Source of the DNA: Candidatus Cloacimonadota bacterium
GTDB taxonomy: Bacteria > Cloacimonadota > Cloacimonadia > JGIOTU-2
Assembly: GCA_034722995.1 (NCBI GenBank)
Contig: JAYEOL010000032.1
Span: 1 to 61,991, forward strand
Reading direction: 5' to 3'
DNA: 61,991 bases
Shown: in pieces, positions 2,915-57,462 of the stretch
How positions within the stretch are numbered: the first letter of the stretch is position 1
How the letters are laid out: each line of letters begins with the position of its first letter
Position numbers and translations under genes: made by a program
Notes under the pieces: generated by a model
The model's input: the letters and a program-made list of their open reading frames with translations, nothing else
Databases searched by the model: none
Told to the model about the DNA's origin: nothing

Positions 2915-4484
<1,570 letters not shown>

Positions 4485-4520: not shown

Positions 4521-4597
4521 GGGCTTGTAGCTCAGTTGGTTGGAGCACCGCTCTGATAAGGCGGGGGTCGGTGGTTCGAGTCCACCCAGGCCCACCA
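4521..4597 (+). tRNA. tRNA-Ile (GAU)
   Basis: gggcttgtagctcagttggttggagcaccgctctgataaggcggg...cccacca. Cloverleaf folds by eye, anticodon loop is CTGATAA, CCA is encoded. This is the typical ITS position. Confidence 0.95.
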
Positions 4598-4639: not shown

Positions 4640-4718
4640 GTGGGATTAACTCAGTTGGGATAGCGTCCCGATGCAATCGGGAAGGTCATCGGTTCGGCGA
4701 CCATACGGAGTTCTGCCA
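4640..4718 (+). pseudogene. degenerate tRNA-like relic between tRNA-Ile and tRNA-Ala
   Basis: The 5' half, variable region and T-stem 5' side align closely with the neighbouring tRNA-Ala (23 of 26 positions over acceptor 5' plus D arm; AGGTC-xTCGGTTCG). It has a perfect 5-bp anticodon-like stem with loop ATGCAAT (GCA). The T-arm 3' side and the acceptor 3' strand do not pair. Confidence 0.4.
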
Positions 4719-4764: not shown

Positions 4765-4840
4765 GGGGGATTAGCTCAGTTGGGAGAGCGCCGCTCTTGC
4801 ACGGCGGAGGTCGTCGGTTCGAACCCGTCATCCTCCACCA
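4765..4840 (+). tRNA. tRNA-Ala (UGC)
   Basis: gggggattagctcagttgggagagcgccgctcttgcacggcgg...tcctccacca. G3:U70 pair present, anticodon loop CTTGCAC. Confidence 0.95.
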
Positions 4841-5195
4841 TTTTAAGATATAGTTTTTGAATTTTTTTATTTATCGGTTATTTGAAAGATATATAGTAGT
4901 GAATTAAAGTAGAAGAATAGAGTAAGGCATTAAGTGCATTCGGTGGATGCCTTGGAGTTAGATTGAGATGAAGGACGTGACCAGCTGCGATAAGCTTCGG
5001 GGAGCTGTAAGTAAGCATAGATCCGGAGATTTCCGAATGGGGTAACCCGTTCCTGTTAATACGGGTTCATCATATATCTGAATAAAATAGGATATATGAG
5101 TCAAACGCAGAGAACTGAAACATCTTAGTATCTGCAGGAAAAGAAAGTAACAACGATTCCCTGAGTAGTGGCGAACGAAAAGGGAACAGCCCAAA

Positions 5196-5538
5196 CCCGA
5201 CACTTATTTAATATGTTTATGGAGGTGTAAGTGTATTATGTGTATGTATTATAGAATGAATTGAATACCAAAACTTATGTAGGATATACCTCGGATTTAA
5301 AGAGAAGATTGAAAGAACATAATGAAAGCAATAAAGGATATACTGGTAGAGGGAAGTGGAGACTGATTTATTATGAAGCATATCTATCAGAAGAGGATGC
5401 AAGAGAAAGAGACCTGTCTGCCGTTAGGCAGGGAGAAAACTAAAACATAATCGAAATAGTAAGAGATCTTTAATAGGAAGAATAAAGTCCCGATAATATC
5501 GGGATAAAGTAATAAGAACATATTAAATAAGTGTCGGG
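5196..5538 (+). other. intervening sequence (IVS)-like stem-closed insertion in 23S domain I
   Basis: A perfect 20-bp closing stem: cccgacacttatttaatatg (5196-5215) pairs with catattaaataagtgtcggg (5519-5538). It replaces what is a short segment in the E. coli 23S near position ~270. The interior is AT-rich and holds a GIY-YIG ORF remnant. Confidence 0.7.
5244..5443 (+). pseudogene. decayed GIY-YIG (URI-domain) nuclease gene inside the 23S insertion
   Basis: ATG-TAT-TAT... gives MYYRMN then a stop. A shifted frame continues as (L)NTKTYVGYTSDLKRRLKEHNESNKGYTGRGKWRLIYYEAY. This is about 45 percent identical to the intact paralog at 54093-54332 (MYYTYIIES...KKYIGYTSDLKKRLNAHNSGN). The N-terminal strand is frameshifted and shortened. 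Confidence 0.6.
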
Positions 5539-5729
5539 GGTAGCGGGACCTAAGATATATTTCGCTGAATTTATAGTTGAACTTTGCTGGAAAGCTAGGT
5601 CAAAGAAGGTGATAACCCTGTAAACGAAATAATGATAGCGAGATTTTAGGAATCCCAAGTAGGATGGGACACTTGGAATCCTGTCTGAATCTGCCAGGAC
5701 CATCTGGTAAGGCTAAATATGATCTAACT

Positions 5730-5768
<39 letters not shown>

Positions 5769-6385
5769 CACCCCGGGAGGGGAGTGAAATAGTACCTGAA
5801 ACCGTTTGCATAAAATCAGTCGAAGTTTTGTGGATTTGCTTGCAAATCTATAGGATAACGGCGTGCCTTTTGTATAATGAGCCGGCGAGTTACTTTGAAC
5901 AGCAAGGTTCAGTCCGATACGGATGAAGCCAAAGCGAAAGCGAGTCTGAATAGGGCGTAAAGTTGTTTTGAGTAGACCCGAAACCGAGTGATCTACCTAT
6001 GTCCAGGTTGAAGTCCCGATAATATCGGGATGGAGGACCGAACCTACTGGAGTTAAAAATCCAGAGGATGAGATGTGGGTAGGGGTGAAAGGCCAAACAA
6101 ACTCGGAGATATCTGGTTCTCTCCGAAACCTGTTTAGGCAGGGCCTTATATTAGATTAACGGAGGTAAAGCACTGATTGGACTAGGGATCCCAAAAGATT
6201 ACCAAACCCATTCAAACTAAGAATGCCGTTAATTGATGTATAGGAGACAGTCTGTGGGGGATAAGCTCCATAGGCAAAAGGGAAACACCCCAGACCATCA
6301 GCTAAGGTCCCAAAATATACACTAAGTGATTAAGGATGTTAAATTGCAAAAACAGCCAGGATGTTGGCTTAGAAGCAGCCATTCA

Positions 6386-6419
<34 letters not shown>

Positions 6420-7239
6420 GTTTTGCACCAAAGATGATCGGGACTAAGTGTATTACCGAAGCTGTGGATCCCGAAGTTAATTCGGGGTGGTAGGAGAGCA
6501 TTCTGTAAGGCTGTAAAGGCGTACTGAAAGGTATGCTGGAGCTATCAGAAGAGATTATGCCGGCATGAGTAGTGATAAGACCGATGAGAAATCGGTCCAC
6601 CAAAAGTCTAAGGTTTCCTGAGTAAAGTTAATCTGCTCAGGGTTAGTCGGACCCTAAGAAGAGGCCGAAAGGCGTATTTGATGGGAAAGCAGTTAAAATT
6701 CTGCTACCCGATATAGATAGTGATGGGATGACGCAGTAATGCGAGGGAGTCTGGTGTTGGAAATCCAGATTTAAGCTGGTAGGTAGGATGAGCAGGAAAA
6801 TACACTCATCTATTACTGAGAAGCTAATACGAGTCACATAAGTGGCAGAAGTCCCTTTATAAAGCTGCCAAGAAATACTCTCTAAACGATTAGTCTATAT
6901 CGGTCCGTACCGCAAACCGACACAGGTAGACGAGGAGAGTATCCTAAGGTGTTCGAGTTAACTCTGGTTAAGGAATTAGGCAAAATTACCCCGTAACTTC
7001 GGAAGAAGGGGTACCATTAAAGGTGAAGAGTTTCGCACTCAGAGCTTTTGATGGTCGCAGTAAATAGGCCCAAGCGACTGTTTATCAAAAACACAGGTCT
7101 ATGCAAAGTAGTAATACCATGTATATAGACTGACACCTGCCCGGTGCCGGAAGGTTAAATGGATGGCTTAGTGGGGATAGCGATATCTTCGCAAAGGTCA
7201 GAAATGAAGCCCCGGTAAACGGCGGCAATAACTATAATT

Positions 7240-7302
<63 letters not shown>

Positions 7303-7368
7303 GGGCGCTGTCTCAACCAGGGACTCGGTGAAATTGCAGTGGCGGTGAAGATGCCGCCTACCCGCGAA

Positions 7369-7400
<32 letters not shown>

Positions 7401-7553
7401 TTTTGATATTGTATTTTGGTACTATATGTGTAGGATAGGTGGGAGGCTGTGAAGTTCCGACGCAAGTCGGAATGGAGCCATCCTTGAAATACCACCCTTA
7501 TAATATTGAGATACTAACTCCTGCCTTTATGAGGTATGAGTACAGTGTCAGGA

Positions 7554-7586
<33 letters not shown>

Positions 7587-7636
7587 AGTAACGGAGGCGC
7601 ACAAAGGTTCCCTCAGCGTGATTGGTAACCACGCAT

Positions 7637-7672
<36 letters not shown>

Positions 7673-7741
7673 CAACGGGTCGAACAGATGGGAAACCAGG
7701 TCTTAGTGATCCTATCTCTCTGTATGGAAGGGGGATAGCTT

Positions 7742-7774
<33 letters not shown>

Positions 7775-7806
7775 CATAGCTTCCGAGAGTTCATATCGAC
7801 GAAGCT

Positions 7807-7846
<40 letters not shown>

Positions 7847-7850
7847 GAAA

Positions 7851-7912
<62 letters not shown>

Positions 7913-8243
7913 AGAGACAGTTCGGTCCCTATCCTTCGTGGGCGGTAGATGTTTGAAGAGAGCCTCATTTAGTACGAGAGGACCGATGAGGACAGACCTC
8001 TGGTGAACCGGTTGTGACGCCAGTTGCATCGCCGGATAGCTAAGTCTGGAATGGATAACTGCTGAAAGCATATAAGCGGGAAGCCAACTCTAAGATTAGA
8101 CATCTTTAAGACCCCTTGGAGACTACAAGGTTGATAGGTTACAGGTGTAAGTTCAGTAATGAATTTAGCCGAGTAATACTAATTGGTCAAAGCCTTATTC
8201 TTTCCCTTTTACTTTAATCACTACAACTTTTGGGCAGTGAAAC

Positions 8244-8359
8244 TTTGGTTGTTATAGCAGCGTGGAAACACCTGTTCCCATTCCGAACACAGTAGTTAAG
8301 CACGCTTACGCTGATGCTACTGCACTGGTAACGGTGTGGAAGAGTAGGTCGCAGCCAGT
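8244..8359 (+). rRNA. rrf: 5S ribosomal RNA
   Basis: ccgaacacagtagttaagc core. Helix I pairs tggttg with cagcca. Enclosed by a flanking processing stem gggcagtgaaa / tttcactgccc followed by ttttt. Confidence 0.9.
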
Positions 8360-8570
8360 TTTTTCACTGCCCTTTTTGTATCAGAAAAAATTTATAATAC
8401 TTATTAAGAATTCAATTCCTACAATTTGAAAGAATATTCACCATAGAAAATAAGAAACCGTGTATTCATCGATCTTTAGAAAAGTTAGCATCCAAAATTC
8501 ACGGTTCAACTGTTAAAGGCAAAAAAAATAGATAGAAAAAGGATTTAATCAAACTAACGAAAATCTTACA

Positions 8571-15521: not shown

Positions 15522-16006
15522 ATTTCTAAATCCGAATTTCTAATGTCAAATAAAATGCCAAAACTTAAATATCAAAATTATTTTTTCTGCTTTGATTTAA
15601 TGATAATTGATGAGAAAATTAAATTAAGTTCAATAGCTTCTTTCCAATATATTTTTGCCTTATCTTTTAGCTGTAGAACTGCTTTTGCAATCACTCTAAA
15701 CCAATATTTTGATTCTTTTGATTCTTTTTTGCAAATTCCTATTTTATGCTCAAAATCCTTTTTTGATTCAGCACAATCAGCTTCGCAATAATTAGCACCA
15801 ACACTTGTACCCGCTTTAACTAATTGAGTAATTAGAGGTAGAATTATCGGTCCCCGATTAAATCGGGGATTGGGGATTTTTTTAGCGAATCCAATAATAT
15901 CCTCACCAAATTTTGCAGTTCTCTCCTTTAAATCGAATTTCTTTTTATTTGCCATTTGTCCACCAGATGGAGGATCACTTGATATTAGAAATTAGGATTT
16001 TGTAAT
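15522..16006. mobile_element. cassette carrying a four-helix-bundle gene, bounded by 23-nt inverted repeats
   Basis: atttctaaatccgaatttctaat (15522-15544) matches the reverse complement of attagaaattaggattttgtaat (15984-16006) at 20 of 23 positions. Confidence 0.5.
15578..15955 (-). CDS. four-helix-bundle protein (23S rRNA intervening-sequence protein family)
   Basis: FDLKERTAKFGEDII...QLVKAGTSVGANYCEADCAESKKDFEHKIGICKKESKESKYWF matches the family pattern (SxGANxxEA...SxKDF...KEaxEtxyW). Confidence 0.8.
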   Translation of the reverse strand: MANKKKFDLKERTAKFGEDIIGFAKKIPNPRFNRGPIILPLITQLVKAGTSVGANYCEADCAESKKDFEHKIGICKKESKESKYWFRVIAKAVLQLKDKAKIYWKEAIELNLIFSSIIIKSKQKK

Positions 16007-49704: not shown

Positions 49705-50331
49705 ATTTCTAAATCCGAAATTCTAAATCCGAAATAAGTTCAAATTTACCCTGTGAACTAAAATGCAAAATAATAAACATTATGATTTAGAAGAACGTCC
49801 GCCAGTTGGCGGATTGCTAAGAGGGTTAGAAATTTAGTTAAGAAAATACCAAAAACAATGTCAAATTTAGAATATGGAAAGCAGTTAATAAGATCTTCTA
49901 GTTCTGTTGGAGCAAATTACACTTGCCCCGTTAGATAAAACTTAATGATGGGTAAGCAGATTAATAAAATTGTTGCCAATAAGTATATAAACTTGTGGTT
50001 TAATACAAGGAGTAATTATCTAACGGGGTGAAAAGCAAATGAATCATTAAGTAAAAAAGATTTTCTAATGCGGATAAAGATTTGTCGCAAAGAATCTAAA
50101 GAAAGTACATTTTGGTTAAAATTATGTGAAGTAAAAAATGAAGCAGAAGAAAAAGAGAGAAAATTTCTAATAGGTGAAGCAACTGAATTAATGAAAATAT
50201 TTGGATCTATTGTTGCCAAAGCAAAATAACAATAAGTTTTAGAACTTTTTAAATTTTGGTTATTAGAATTTTGAAATTGTTTAGTCCCCGATTAAATCGG
50301 GGATAGAAATTAGAATTTAGAATTTGTAAAT
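49705..50331. mobile_element. second four-helix-bundle cassette, bounded by inverted TTCTAAAT-type repeats
   Basis: Left arm atttctaaatccgaaattctaaatccgaaat (49705-49735). Right arm agaaattagaatttagaatttgtaaat (50305-50331) is related in reverse complement. Confidence 0.45.
49763..50229 (+). pseudogene. four-helix-bundle (23S IVS protein family) gene disrupted by two small palindromic insertions
   Basis: MQNNKHYDLEER, then the 14-nt palindrome ccgccagttggcgg (49799-49812), whose removal restores the frame into IAKRVRNLVKKIPKTMSNLEYGKQLIRSSSSVGANY. A ~110-nt insert with ccccgttagat / atctaacgggg ends follows (49921-50033). The frame then resumes as ANESLSKKDFLMRIKICRKESKESTFW... Confidence 0.7.
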
Positions 50332-53835: not shown

Positions 53836-53911
53836 GGGGCTGTAGCTCAGTTGGGAGAGCATTTGTCTGGCAGACAAAAGGTCACGGGTTCGAGCCCCGT
53901 TAGCTCCACCA
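53836..53911 (+). tRNA. tRNA-Ala (GGC)
   Basis: ggggctgtagctcagttgggagagcatttgtctggcagacaaa...tagctccacca. G3:U70 pair present, anticodon loop CTGGCAG. Confidence 0.9.
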
Positions 53912-54092
53912 TCTTTCGCACATTTATTTCATAAATGAGCTTCAGATGGCAAGCCATATTTTTTTTATTCATTCCATTGAAGTCTAAATTCAATTATTCA
54001 GGGTGAAAGATGTCTTCCGTAGTCTATATTCTCTATATCAATGCTCCAGCGTAGAATAAGTTGACGGAGGAAGACACTATTAGTTAAAAATA

Positions 54093-54332
54093 ATGTATTA
54101 TACTTACATAATTGAAAGTAAAACAGTCCCAACTAAAAAGTATATTGGCTATACCTCTGATTTGAAGAAACGATTAAATGCTCACAATTCAGGAAATTGT
54201 AAATTCACATCAAAATATAAACCCTGGAAAATTAATACTTATATCGCTTTCATTGATAGAGAAAAAGCTATGAAATTTGAGAAGTATCTTAAATCTGGTT
54301 CAGGACATGCCTTTACAAAAAAACATTTCTAA
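54093..54332 (+). CDS. GIY-YIG (URI-domain) nuclease-family small protein
   Basis: MYYTYIIES...KKYIGYTSDLKKRLNAHNSG...EKAMKFEKYLKSGSG. Confidence 0.8.
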   Translation: MYYTYIIESKTVPTKKYIGYTSDLKKRLNAHNSGNCKFTSKYKPWKINTYIAFIDREKAMKFEKYLKSGSGHAFTKKHF

Positions 54333-54720
54333 ATGAAATTAAAATAAAACATCCCTTTAAAACCAGCCTCTCCGCTGTCATTCCATATAATTTGGGAATG
54401 CATTTGATTTCATGCTTTTTCTAGCAATCTGGGTTTTGCCATAAACCTACAGTGTTTTTATTGACAAAAAATTCTATAAAATATTTCTTTATTTTAAATC
54501 TCTTATGCTTCATAATTAGAATAGGATTTGGAGATATTGATAATAATAACTTAATGAAAAATACATGTCCCCGATACATCGGGAGACAAAGGAGAACGAA
54601 TCCCGATTTATCGGGATGAGTCAGAGTTATCAAATTTTCTCTGTGTTCTCTGTGTCCCCGCCTGCCAAAGCCTTGTGCGGCGGGCAGGTCTGCGGTGAAG
54701 ATTTTCAATGAAGAATAACT

Positions 54721-57462
54721 ATGGACAAAAACACAGCAAAACAACAAATCGCCAAACTAATTGATAAATACAAACGACTTTTAGAAGCAGGTAAGGTCAA
54801 ATCATATAACGAAGCTCAAACTCGTAATGAATTTATTGAGCCTTTTTTTCAGTTTTTGGGCTGGGATATGCGAAACCTTGAATACGAAAACGAGGTTACC
54901 ACTGAGGAAAATGTTTCAAAAGGAAGGGTTGACCTCGCCTTTAAAATAAACAACATTCCAGTAATGTTTTTAGAAGCAAAGGCTTTAAAGATTGACCTTG
55001 ATGAATGGAAATGGGCAGAACAAGCTATTAACTACAGTTGGAACAAAAGTGTAACCTGGGCAGTGCTTACAGACTTTGAAGGTATCAAGATTTTCAATGC
55101 GGAGATACCACCCAAAGGACTTTCTGATAACCTCTTTTTTGAACTTTCCTGGCAAAATTATTTAGATAGATTTAACCAACTCTATCTTTTATCAAAAGAA
55201 AGCTTTGAGCAAGGATTACTCTCCAAAGAAGCGGAAAAATGGGGTAAACTCATAAAAAGAAAGCAGGTTGGTGAAAAACTCTTTGAAGATCTAACTAATT
55301 GGCGTGGATGCCTTACCAAACAGTTTAAAAAGAAAAATGAACTCACAGAAGAAGAATTAGACGAAGGTGTGCAGAGAATCATTGACCGTTTAATTTTTAT
55401 CCGAACTGCAGAAGACCGAAACATAGAACCAAATATTTTGCTTTCTCTTCTAAGAGGTTGGAAAAGTTCTGGAAAGAAAAAAAGCCTATATAAACAACTT
55501 GTAAAAATCTTCCACAAATTTGATGACGGCTACAACTCAAAACTGTTTGCTCCCCATTACAGTGAAAAATGGGAAGCAGATGACAAAGTGTTTATTGATA
55601 TTATTCAAGGACTTTACAAAACAAAAGATGGCTATAGATATGATTTTTCTGCTATTTCTGCTGATGTGTTGGGTGGCATTTACGAGCAGTATTTAGGATA
55701 TGTGCTGAAAAAAGTAAAAAAGAAATCAGCAGCAGAGGCAAAGCGAGCAAAACGAAAATCTCAAGGAATTTTTTACACGCCAAAATATATTGTGGATTCC
55801 ATCGTTACGCAAACACTGGGCGAAGTTTTACGAAAAACAAAGAGAAAGGATATTCCGAAAATCAAGGTGCTTGACCCTGCTTGCGGTTCTGGCTCTTTTT
55901 TGATTGCCGCTTATGACAAAATTCTGGAAACATTAGAAAAACAAAATCCACAAATTAGTTTGTTTACCAAGTTTGATATTTTGAAAGATAACATCTACGG
56001 TGTTGATTTAGACGAGCAAGCAGTAGAAATTGCCCAGCTTAATTTGCTTTTAAAAGTCCTTACTCAAAGGGCAAAACTGCCGACTTTGCAGCACAATATT
56101 CGTATGGGAAACTCTCTGGTATCTGGCAATGCAGAAAGTCTTGAGCCGTATTTTGGCGAGAAATGGCAGAAGCAAAAACCATTTAATTGGAATGAGAAAT
56201 TTAAAGAGGTATTTTTACCTACCAAAGTTTCAACAAAGGCAGATGAACAAGGTGGTTTTGATGTGGTAATAGGGAATCCACCGTATATATTTGCTCGCGG
56301 TAAAAGTTTCTCCAATCAAGTAAAAAAATACTATTATGACCAGTATGAACTTGCTGAATATCAGCTTAATACTTATCTTTTGTTTATTAATCGGTCATAT
56401 AAATTGCTAAAAGATGGTGGATATTTTGGCTTCATTATTCCAAATACATGGCTGACGATTGATACTTTTTCAAATTTAAGAAAATTCCTGCTTGAACAAA
56501 CTGGAAGTCTTCAAATAATAAACATTTACGACAAAGTATTTCAAGATGCAAATGTTGATAATTGTTTGTTGATTTTCAAGAAAGGCAGACGAAGCAAAGT
56601 TACTCTCGGTGAATTTAGAGAAGGAAAACTTGAAATTGTGGGGAAATTCTTGCCAGATCTTTTTAGGAGCAATAATCACATTATCAACATTTCTTTAGCT
56701 AAAAATAAAGAAAAGATGAAGATTTTGAAAAAGATTGAAAAGAAATCAAAGCAGTTGAGCCTTTATTCAACAGTTAAAGCTGGGTTAAAAGCCTATGAAA
56801 CAGGAAAGGGAAATCCTGTTCAAACGGATAAAATGAAAAATAATAGAATTTATCATAGCAAAGAAAAAGTTGATGAAAGTTATGTTAAATATCTTGAGGG
56901 ACGAGATGTTAAACGTTATCAGATTAGTTGGAGCGGTTGGTGGTTGAAATATGGAAAATGTTTAGCAGCACAAAGAAAAGAAGAATTGTTTACAACTCCA
57001 CGCATTTTAGTGCGACAAATACCTTCTCCTCCTCCTTATTCTATCAATGCCGTTTATACAGAAAAATATTTATTAAACGACATTAACAGCATGATTATTT
57101 TTAAATTTGTGAATGTTGAGCCTTTGTTTATTTTAGCAGTTCTGAACTCTCGTGTTACAACCTTTTGGTTTACAAACACTTTTGATAAATTCCAGCGTAA
57201 AACATTTCCTCAATTTAAAGTTAAAGAGCTTGCGATATTCCCAATTCCACAAGCCAGTAAGAACGAGCAAGAAGAAGTTGCCAAGAAATCACAACAAATG
57301 CTTAATCTCAATAAAGAATTGCAAGCAACTTCAGAAAATACAGATAAGTGGAATCGGCTAAAAGAGAAAATAGAAAGGCTTGACCAAAAAATTGACCAAG
57401 AAGTTTATAAACTTTATGGACTTACTAGAGAAGAAATCAAAATAATTGAGCAGGAAAGATGA
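54721..57462 (+). CDS. Type IIG restriction endonuclease / N6-adenine DNA methyltransferase fusion
   Basis: N-terminal HsdR_N-like PD-(D/E)xK (NEAQTRNEFIEPFFQFLGW...VDLAF...FLEAKAL). Motif I VLDPACGSGSFLIAA. Motif IV VIGNPPYI. C-terminal TRD-like region. Confidence 0.8.
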   Translation: MDKNTAKQQIAKLIDKYKRLLEAGKVKSYNEAQTRNEFIEPFFQFLGWDMRNLEYENEVTTEENVSKGRVDLAFKINNIPVMFLEAKALKIDLDEWKWAEQAINYSWNKSVTWAVLTDFEGIKIFNAEIPPKGLSDNLFFELSWQNYLDRFNQLYLLSKESFEQGLLSKEAEKWGKLIKRKQVGEKLFEDLTNWRGCLTKQFKKKNELTEEELDEGVQRIIDRLIFIRTAEDRNIEPNILLSLLRGWKSSGKKKSLYKQLVKIFHKFDDGYNSKLFAPHYSEKWEADDKVFIDIIQGLYKTKDGYRYDFSAISADVLGGIYEQYLGYVLKKVKKKSAAEAKRAKRKSQGIFYTPKYIVDSIVTQTLGEVLRKTKRKDIPKIKVLDPACGSGSFLIAAYDKILETLEKQNPQISLFTKFDILKDNIYGVDLDEQAVEIAQLNLLLKVLTQRAKLPTLQHNIRMGNSLVSGNAESLEPYFGEKWQKQKPFNWNEKFKEVFLPTKVSTKADEQGGFDVVIGNPPYIFARGKSFSNQVKKYYYDQYELAEYQLNTYLLFINRSYKLLKDGGYFGFIIPNTWLTIDTFSNLRKFLLEQTGSLQIINIYDKVFQDANVDNCLLIFKKGRRSKVTLGEFREGKLEIVGKFLPDLFRSNNHIINISLAKNKEKMKILKKIEKKSKQLSLYSTVKAGLKAYETGKGNPVQTDKMKNNRIYHSKEKVDESYVKYLEGRDVKRYQISWSGWWLKYGKCLAAQRKEELFTTPRILVRQIPSPPPYSINAVYTEKYLLNDINSMIIFKFVNVEPLFILAVLNSRVTTFWFTNTFDKFQRKTFPQFKVKELAIFPIPQASKNEQEEVAKKSQQMLNLNKELQATSENTDKWNRLKEKIERLDQKIDQEVYKLYGLTREEIKIIEQER

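Follow-up and report, generated by a model that had tools for sequence, protein, structure and literature searches.

Intervening sequences (IVSs) in bacterial ribosomal RNA (rRNA) genes have been known for more than 30 years, and their origin and spread are unresolved. The 23S rRNA gene of a Candidatus Cloacimonadota bacterium (contig JAYEOL010000032.1 of GenBank assembly GCA_034722995.1) raises this question at a single locus: at positions 5196-5538 it contains a 343-nt insert, which is closed by a long stem and carries a broken gene for a GIY-YIG nuclease. What kind of element is this insert, how did it reach the rRNA gene, and what would it do to the rRNA? The whole stretch of DNA analysed, 61,991 nt in length, is called the window below. 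The answer that we find reasonably probable is a small mobile cassette, now fossilising in this copy, which also acts as an rRNA intervening sequence and is excised at its stem.

The insert, its closing stem and its broken gene

The host gene of the insert spans 4920-8202 on the forward strand, as established by alignment with Rfam RF02541. It is 3283 nt long, against 2925 positions in the Rfam bacterial large-subunit model, an excess of about 358 nt. About 325 of the surplus nucleotides fall in the loop of one hairpin of domain I, at RF02541 positions 274-295 of the Rfam alignment. We take this site to be the helix 15 region, near E. coli nucleotides 270-280. The helix names used here (15, 25, 45, h6 and P3) are assigned from E. 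coli numbering, and tool-derived Rfam coordinates apply to the domain I and helix 25 sites only. The insert is AT-rich, as the preliminary description of the locus had stated, with 27-36% GC in its interior against 40-51% in the flanking 23S sequence. The Infernal/Rfam check for an intron ribozyme that the same description had proposed returned no family at gathering score or E<=10, and no group I or group II intron core. No sense-strand terminator was found in the insert, and promoter-like matches occur there at chance level.

The boundaries are formed by a perfect inverted repeat, the left arm CCCGACACTTATTTAATATGTT (5196-5217, forward strand) being complementary at 22 of 22 positions to the right arm AACATATTAAATAAGTGTCGGG (5517-5538, forward strand). 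The outer 8 nt of the left arm match the terminal motif CCCnnCAC of the family described below. The closing helix had been reported as 20 bp; it is real, but its length is 22 bp. When the RNA is folded, the stem encloses the whole insert (z = -5.9; 0 of 100 shuffles fold as well). Given the Rfam placement, the complementary arms and the lack of an intron match, the description of the locus as a stem-closed, non-intron insertion in 23S domain I holds.

Between the arms lies a pseudogene of the UPF0213/Slx1-like GIY-YIG type (5231-5496, forward strand), whose ancestral product was 81 amino acids (aa) long. It runs from a GTG at 5231, with a Shine-Dalgarno-like GGAGG 5 nt upstream (5221-5225), to a TAA at 5494-5496, and is broken twice. 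The gene start reads (M)YYVYVL and then meets an in-frame TAG at codon 8 (5252-5254), where all relatives have CAG (Gln); the sequence NELNTKTYVGYTSDL is in the same frame. The second lesion is a 20-nt GC-rich hairpin insertion, CCTGTCTGCCGTTAGGCAGG (5413-5432), absent in six of six relatives and present as a single copy within the window. Without these 20 nt the frame extends through ...RERERKLKHNRNSKRSLIGRIKSR to the TAA, in agreement with the intact 81-aa homologue. The N-terminus had been thought to be frameshifted; the lesion there is instead a nonsense mutation in the frame of the GTG start, and the reading 'MYYRMN-stop' is out of frame. The C-terminal divergence noted earlier is present, and is caused by the inserted hairpin, which shifts the frame. 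A mini-hairpin, TCCCGATAATATCGGGA (5488-5504), extends across the end of the gene, including its final codons and stop; it is shared by the related copy L004, and the lineage of the related copy L001 has a different sequence there.

The identity of the gene was checked with the Pfam GIY-YIG profile PF01541, which the 60-aa open reading frame (ORF) at 5261-5443 matches with E=2.3e-11 and 44.3 bits (cut-off 22.6). The decayed GIY-YIG gene is thereby confirmed. The same ORF is 46% identical over 48 aa to an intact free-standing paralogue of 79 aa outside the insert (54093-54332, forward strand), close to the approximately 45% first estimated. This free gene begins 182 nt downstream of tRNA-Ala(GGC), and no flanking repeat of the CCCnnCAC type was found around it. 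Its neighbour on the other side is a 913-aa Eco57I/MmeI-like restriction-modification fusion gene (54721-57462; whole region 53836-57462).

The same insert was found at the same 23S site in six related assemblies, giving, with the window, seven independent copies. The sources are NCBI, ENA, Logan and JGI assemblies, two copies coming from a scan of metagenome DNA. Misassembly, which the comparison with relatives had been proposed to reveal, is excluded because these separate assemblies share the insert. The top database matches to the ORF (92% identity) are all encoded within 23S at the same position, and the 16S rRNA of the relatives, where present, is about 98.5% identical to that of the window. 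The metagenome scan, which looked for the same arms in other contexts, returned just these two copies of the same rRNA insert.

Three states of the gene are seen in this lineage. The ORF is intact in L004 (81 aa); L001, L002, L003, L092 and L093 share a CGA to TGA change at codon 68 (R68 to stop); and in the window copy two lesions arose independently. Across the seven copies the 22-nt arms do not differ. The interior differs from that of the window by about 3% (L004) to about 5% (L001 lineage), plus indels. This is about the divergence of the internal transcribed spacer (ITS), and for this reason the insert looks old and vertically inherited in this lineage, with the stem kept while the gene decays. 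A recent horizontal transfer was considered and rejected: the insert is not clearly more conserved than its flanks. Identity to L004 is about 97% for the insert, 98% for the 5' part of 23S, 90.5% for the ITS and 89% for the variable 3' part of 23S, and in L001 the insert divergence is similar to that of the ITS.

The window contains a single rRNA operon, which also includes 16S rRNA (2915-4474), tRNA-Ile (4521-4597), tRNA-Ala (4765-4840) and 5S rRNA (8244-8360). Between the two tRNA genes, at 4641-4712, lies a tRNA-like sequence with the look of a Cys (GCA) anticodon arm; it is called by neither ARAGORN nor Rfam and is probably a decayed tRNA. The host has type IX secretion sorting domains, riboflavin synthesis, hydrogenases and a standard-length 16S rRNA, and the metabolic genes of the window include methylmalonyl-CoA decarboxylase, an Mvh/Hdr-type hydrogenase and 2-oxoacid:ferredoxin oxidoreductase. 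From the sorting domains and the metabolic genes, the host is an anaerobe outside the Candidate Phyla Radiation (CPR). Elsewhere in the 23S gene, L001 (8016-8763) and L093 carry a 747-nt insert with a LAGLIDADG_1 ORF, for which no group I intron model was obtained at gathering score; the corresponding site in the window, near 7270, is empty. The 23S segment 5539-6138 of the window differs from L001 6285-6881 by 9%, the 16S genes differ by 1.5% and the first 276 nt of 23S by 0.4%.

A wider family of cassettes in stable-RNA genes

Homologues were sought with a 30-homologue profile in a collection with one genome per species, and the best 80 loci were placed against the window rRNAs and then checked with Rfam and ARAGORN. 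Stable-RNA genes or operons hold 35 of these 80 loci. The carriers belong to many phyla, both CPR and non-CPR, and in every case in or beside an identified RNA gene the ORF is co-oriented with that gene. This distribution across rRNA, RNase P and tRNA sites supports the earlier suggestion of an invasive lifestyle in the gene family of the occupant.

The domain I site (274-295) is filled in Deferribacter thermophilus, in two metagenome-assembled genomes (MAGs) labelled Bdellovibrionales and in two Moranbacteria-type CPR MAGs; across phyla it is filled in some genomes and empty in others. The location had been called unusual, which overstates the case, since the site recurs. The helix 25 region of 23S is occupied in Planctomycetota, Deferribacter, a cyanobacterium and several CPR bacteria, and the helix 45 region in Marispirochaeta, [Eubacterium] yurii and an uncultured bacterium. 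In 16S rRNA, cassettes occur in the helix 6 region (Pararhizobium and several CPR bacteria) and, at one locus, in the 3' part. RNase P RNA is the host at a TA06 locus with full score (214 bits) and at four CPR loci with sub-threshold scores (E 1e-6 to 6e-20). Further cassettes, mostly from Saccharibacteria, abut the 5' end of tRNA-Ala or tRNA-Ile genes. The best rRNA-located match to the window protein beyond its own lineage is P0004 (62-63% identity), at the helix 25 site of another bacterium.

Some of these loci have features of their own. The one 23S gene of D. thermophilus BMA (L007) carries two cassettes, at 2352-2636 and 2923-3233, with apparently intact ORFs of 74 and 84 aa. In the tRNA-abutting CPR cassettes (L042, L046, L050, L056, L059, L066, L067, L071 and L078) the right cassette end (…GGGGC) provides the first bases of the tRNA-Ala or tRNA-Ile gene, and a duplicate of 2-10 nt of the tRNA 5' end stands to the left of the cassette; L067 has two tandem copies. 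The RNase P RNA cassettes (L051 3310-3979; L039, L044, L049 and L079) lie inside the gene or in its 5' part. Their right flank AGGAAAGUCC… is the P4 strand, and for this reason the hairpin replaced appears to be the one that we take to be P3. The helix 45 insert of L015 (a MAG labelled Bdellovibrionales; 5161-5380) has a stem of about 21 bp and holds a complete tRNA-Asp(GTC) at 5195-5270.

No phage carriage was detected by tblastn against 50,697 phage records. Plasmid matches were restricted to distant homologues (37-42% identity) on alphaproteobacterial chromids and a Spirosoma plasmid. The two loci inspected from this search, in Azospirillum and Rhizobium, are outside rRNA. In Azospirillum lipoferum 4B plasmid AZO_p3 (L094, 3377-3889) the homologue lies between sufB and sufC, and in Rhizobium sp. 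CIAT894 (L095, 3439-3840) beside an IS4 transposase gene. Both (38-39% identity) have flanking inverted repeats of 33-36 nt whose arms are REP-like hairpins.

Nearly all homologues are bracketed by an inverted repeat of 13-29 nt, and the elements measure 252-350 bp. When 55 elements were aligned from their outer ends, the first eight positions read CCC[A/C][G/C/T]CAC, the single-base positions being conserved in 50 (C), 53 (C), 45 (C), 47 (C), 39 (A) and 45 (C) elements in order; overall the outer ends are CCCnnCAC...GTGnnGGG. The window arms, which start CCCGACAC, agree with this motif. Arm positions 1-19 pair in 87-100% of the 55 elements. Positions 9-19 vary freely yet remain complementary, with four to six pair types per position, and pairing reaches 11.1 of 12 positions, against 5.7 of 12 when arms are matched with those of other elements. 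Among the non-Watson-Crick oppositions on the sense strand, G-T (52) outnumbers A-C (18), which points to selection on the RNA helix of the transcribed strand. The window insert fits the family definition, with arms of at least 13 nt, CCCnnCAC/GTGnnGGG ends and a GIY-YIG ORF remnant filling 5231-5496, co-oriented with 23S.

As the flanks show, each site has the element in place of its native hairpin tip (helix 25 region, ...GUCGGAG|element|UGACGGCGUGCC; helix 45 region, ...GAAGCUGCGG|element|GGUAGGGGAGCG). The ORF fills the interior, starting 9-40 nt from the left end and stopping 3-30 nt from the right end, and a few ORFs read through into the flank. Most are intact, with 74-104 aa.

Hairpins and short inserts with the same ends and no gene occur at other rRNA helices, often alongside a full cassette in one genome. 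At the domain I site (274-295) L087 has CCGAGCAC-TAAATTA-GTGCTCGG, and the helix 25 cassette of the same genome begins CCGAGCACTTAATT. Gene-less inserts are also found at helix 45 in L028 (about 130 nt, with the ends of its own domain I cassette) and L019 (79 nt), and at helix 25 in L011 (103 nt). In Deferribacter (L007), the sequence CCGAGCACCU...AGGUGCUUGG at helix 10, near 2230-2260, resembles the genome's own helix 25 cassette. Combined with the three decay states of the window lineage, these ORF-less derivatives sketch a possible path from intact cassette to pseudogene, to ORF-less intervening sequence and to plain hairpin.

The family profile matches the UPF0213 proteins BH0048 (1zg2, E=1.7e-12) and EF2693 (1ywl); Slx1 and I-TevI match more weakly. 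An AlphaFold (AF2) model of the intact 81-aa homologue P0002 has a mean confidence (pLDDT) of 87.9. It superposes best on 1zg2 and the Slx1 nuclease domain, with template-modelling (TM) scores of 0.66-0.71 over the query (UvrC 0.55, I-TevI 0.48). The catalytic columns Y5, Y16, R26, H30 and E49 are invariant in 30 relatives. A scan of 1.84 billion cluster representatives returned 25,220 clusters with E<=1e-3 and 5,543 with E<=1e-10. The neighbour-joining (NJ) tree of the cassette proteins is poorly resolved, and several proteins group in it by insertion site across phyla; for example, the helix 25 cassettes of Deferribacter, a cyanobacterium and a metagenomic bacterium cluster together. The window lineage groups in this tree with helix 25 cassettes, not with other domain I cassettes. 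Such a pattern suggests site-faithful spread with occasional switches of site.

Proposed working and alternative explanations

As we picture it, the cassette consists of two complementary arms of 13-29 nt around one gene for a minimal Slx1-like GIY-YIG nuclease of about 80 aa, and would take the place of a dispensable hairpin tip in a strongly transcribed gene for a stable RNA. Within the primary transcript, a long perfect helix formed by the two arms would extend the host helix, so that host folding would be preserved. A double-strand RNase (RNase III-type) would then cut the insert out without religation, so that the window 23S would consist of two fragments, one of about 0.28 kb at the 5' end and one of about 2.66 kb. 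The RNA freed from intact copies could serve as mRNA for the nuclease, which would promote DNA-level copying into empty sites and occasionally into new hairpins. This mobility step might be homing into empty alleles or a structure-specific, REPIN-like mobilisation; the latter is considered because the nuclease is Slx1-like and domain-less, and because ORF-less hairpins share the cassette ends. In the window, where the nuclease is dead and the stem intact, the intervening sequence would be maintained by the host's need for the stem. The anatomy of the insert, the family with its covariation and the decay series are observed; that RNase III cleaves the stem, that the freed RNA is translated and that the nuclease drives mobility are inferred. 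Where 23S intervening sequences occupy helices 25 and 45, their long stems are cut by RNase III and the fragments are not religated (PMC11270868).

Several observations weigh against a mobile, excised cassette. No presence/absence polymorphism was seen in the close relatives, where seven of seven copies are filled, and the lineage shows no sign of current mobility, all copies being filled and about as divergent (3-5%) as the ITS. An empty-site allele was sought with lineage-specific 23S flanks in JGI metagenomes; there was no match, which says nothing either way. Target sites are not regularly duplicated; the exception is tRNA 5' ends, of which variable stretches are repeated. Translation is complicated in many cassettes by a start codon and a Shine-Dalgarno-like sequence that lie within the stem. 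The protein has no DNA-binding domain, all 81 aa belonging to the catalytic domain, unlike the proven GIY-YIG homing endonucleases. As to the survey, the context of 45 of the best 80 loci was not identified, many elements come from related CPR genomes and their counts are not independent, and the taxonomic labels of MAG rRNA contigs may be wrong.

The alternatives differ in which step of this scheme they deny. If the insert were a retained expansion segment, it would form an extra surface helix in the mature 23S, with ORF debris and without processing. The site is indeed a variable hairpin tip, none of the seven related copies has lost the insert, the sequence offers no proof of cleavage, and insertions defined against E. 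coli need not equal excised regions (Tsurumaki et al., PMC11270868). However, a perfect helix of at least 22 bp with about 300 nt of AT-rich, mRNA-like sequence is a classical RNase III substrate, and homologous cassettes sit exactly at two classical sites of excised IVSs. The pairing is also conserved family-wide with an excess of G-U while the interior decays, and a processing signal fits this better; we regard simple retention as unlikely. Hairpin-repeat transposition of the REPIN/RAYT type departs from our preferred explanation in the mobility step only. Here the nuclease would recognise the CCCnnCAC arms as a DNA hairpin or cruciform and mobilise both cassettes and ORF-less hairpins in trans, the rRNA sites being merely tolerated. 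Gene-less hairpins that share the cassette ends and occupy further rRNA helices of a cassette-bearing genome (L087, L028, L007 and L011), tandem copies in L067 and L085, the REP-like hairpin arms of the 33-36-nt repeats around the Azospirillum and Rhizobium homologues, and the many small GC-rich hairpins of the window are all in line with it, as are the lack of a DNA-binding domain and the structure-specific nature of Slx1, the nearest structural relative. Against these stand the partial clustering of the proteins by site across phyla, as predicted by site-faithful homing, the lack of regular target duplications, and the asymmetry of G-T over A-C, which indicates arms selected as RNA and not as DNA alone. 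On balance this version seems to us doubtful, though worth keeping in view.

Much less probable is a GIY-YIG protein that acts on RNA, excising its own stem like a maturase, with spread by ordinary recombination. Strict co-orientation with the host RNA genes, stem ends so conserved that they could be a recognition site for the protein, and the presence of cassettes in several RNAs that all need precise processing would suit such a role. But where the gene is dead, as in the window, the L001 lineage and [Eubacterium] yurii, the insert is still there, which means that the host must cope without the protein, and we know of no GIY-YIG enzyme that cleaves RNA. For a self-splicing intron or an assembly artefact, just the presence of an endonuclease-family ORF in an rRNA gene can be cited. 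The intron hypothesis is rejected within the sensitivity of the covariance models, there being no group I or II match at gathering score or E<=10, and the same insert is present in seven independent assemblies; this last alternative is hardly credible.

Beyond the preferred reading of a fossilising cassette, a more general proposal can be made, tentatively and with some doubt. The cassettes may be a distinct class of autonomous mobile elements specialised for stable-RNA genes (16S, 23S, RNase P RNA and pre-tRNA leaders), in which an Slx1-like structure-specific nuclease spreads a gene-in-hairpin. The arms would double as an RNA-processing signal that makes the insertions harmless, and would outlast the gene as ORF-less IVSs or as ordinary-looking variable rRNA hairpins.

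Relation to known elements and meaning for rRNA intervening sequences

The classical 23S IVSs of Salmonella, Leptospira, Campylobacter and Coxiella, which are excised by RNase III, are likewise non-intron inserts at hairpin tips with a long complementary stem. They sometimes contain a small ORF and are sporadic across taxa, as in the cassette family, and cassette homologues occupy both classical IVS sites, helices 25 and 45. In contrast to the S23p-type IVS, the ORF is here a GIY-YIG nuclease and not the S23p (PF05635) four-helix bundle. Also unlike classical IVSs, the window copy is in domain I, the family extends to 16S, RNase P RNA and the vicinity of tRNAs, and the excision is predicted.

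A GIY-YIG occupant of a non-intron rRNA insert is not new, and the earlier remark that it looked unusual was too strong. In CPR bacteria, all GIY-YIG proteins of rRNA insertions were found in inserts without an intron-model match, and these insertions are sparsely scattered and were judged to be outside homing (Tsurumaki et al. 2024, PMC11270868); the first sighting is credited to Brown et al. 2015, as cited in PMC11270868. The CPR insertions share with the cassettes the GIY-YIG ORFs, the lack of an intron model and the several scattered sites, and many of our loci are from CPR genomes. The window host, however, is non-CPR-like, and PMC11270868 is without closing stems, CCCnnCAC ends, ORF-less derivatives, RNase P/tRNA contexts and non-CPR carriers. 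The literature on GIY-YIG elements flanked by terminal inverted repeats, RNase P insertions, COG2827 and UPF0213 was searched, and yielded no prior description beyond PMC11270868, with subscription journals thinly covered. This is weak evidence that the closing stem with its conserved ends and covarying interior, the non-CPR carriers including cultured species, the RNase P/tRNA contexts, the ORF-less derivatives and the Slx1-like nuclease have not been described.

The cassettes share the catalytic fold, a selfish-gene context and residence in conserved genes with the GIY-YIG homing endonucleases (I-TevI, I-BmoI and the Seg proteins). These are two-domain proteins with a DNA-binding domain, usually located in group I introns or free-standing in phages, whereas the cassette protein is an 81-aa catalytic domain only, is closer to Slx1 (TM about 0.7) than to I-TevI (0.48), and has no phage homologue in our search. 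The best matches in sequence and structure are single-domain proteins of about 90 aa from the UPF0213/bacterial Slx1 cluster (BH0048 1zg2 and EF2693 1ywl; E. coli YhbQ type). They are annotated as free-standing, with no assigned role, and no cassette association was found in their description. The REPIN/RAYT system likewise combines a small nuclease gene between inverted hairpin-forming repeats with ORF-less repeat copies elsewhere. RAYTs are HUH/Y1 transposases and REPINs are intergenic, and the likeness to the cassettes is by analogy only.

Two S23p genes are present in the window, both outside the rRNA operon. The free cassette at 15578-15955 is confirmed (PF05635, E=1.7e-9). The second, at about 49763-50229, is itself broken, only the C-terminal 53 aa being left as an ORF. 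It is interrupted by an insert of about 103 nt with a perfect 13-nt inverted repeat (CCCCGTTAGATAA at 49926-49938 and TTATCTAACGGGG at 50016-50028) and by a small hairpin, TCCGCCAGTTGGCGGA (49798-49813). Both S23p units lie between imperfect inverted repeats, 34-36 nt long, for which the motif TTCTAAATCCGAAAT is the building block (15514-15549/15979-16014 and 49704-49737/50292-50325). They look like repeat-bounded cassettes with ends unrelated to CCCnnCAC, and no S23p gene was found within a CCCnnCAC-ended cassette among 95 loci. A lifestyle common to S23p and GIY-YIG genes, as first suggested, thus holds loosely, both being repeat-bracketed, but their ends differ.

Small hairpins are abundant in the window: 20 short, GC-rich and perfect ones were counted, where Markov shuffles gave 0-3. 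The mini-hairpin CCCGAT-N(2-8)-ATCGGG occurs 13 times against 0 expected, at 4667, 5489, 6015, 15284, 15853, 19888, 38560, 39395, 47921, 50287, 54570, 54602 and 59158. The copy at 5489, at the end of the insert gene, is an identical 15-mer to the copy at 6015, which lies in a native-looking 23S hairpin, and a further two follow closely behind the free GIY-YIG gene. In general kind, the 20-nt insertion in the broken gene of the insert is like the GC-rich hairpins of the window.

The cassette offers a concrete candidate for the vehicle of rRNA intervening sequences: an element, about 300 bp long, that has conserved ends and a covarying stem and encodes a nuclease of its own. Intact, nonsense-mutated and ORF-less forms make up a traceable series, and the cassette is present not only at classical IVS positions but also at new ones and even within RNase P RNA. 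The origin and movement of IVSs thereby become directly testable, and some carriers are in culture. Deferribacter thermophilus, one 23S gene of which holds two cassettes that appear intact, is a convenient experimental system, and [Eubacterium] yurii ATCC 43714 holds a decayed cassette. The findings also hint at what the tiny GIY-YIG proteins of UPF0213, a very large family (about 25,000 clusters at 50% identity), may do. In practice, rRNA genes outside the CPR are likewise lengthened, and would be fragmented, by such inserts, with effects on rRNA-based annotation and binning. If the cassettes do form a class of mobile elements specialised for stable-RNA genes, part of the variability of bacterial rRNA helices, and many 'classical' ORF-less IVSs, would descend from them.

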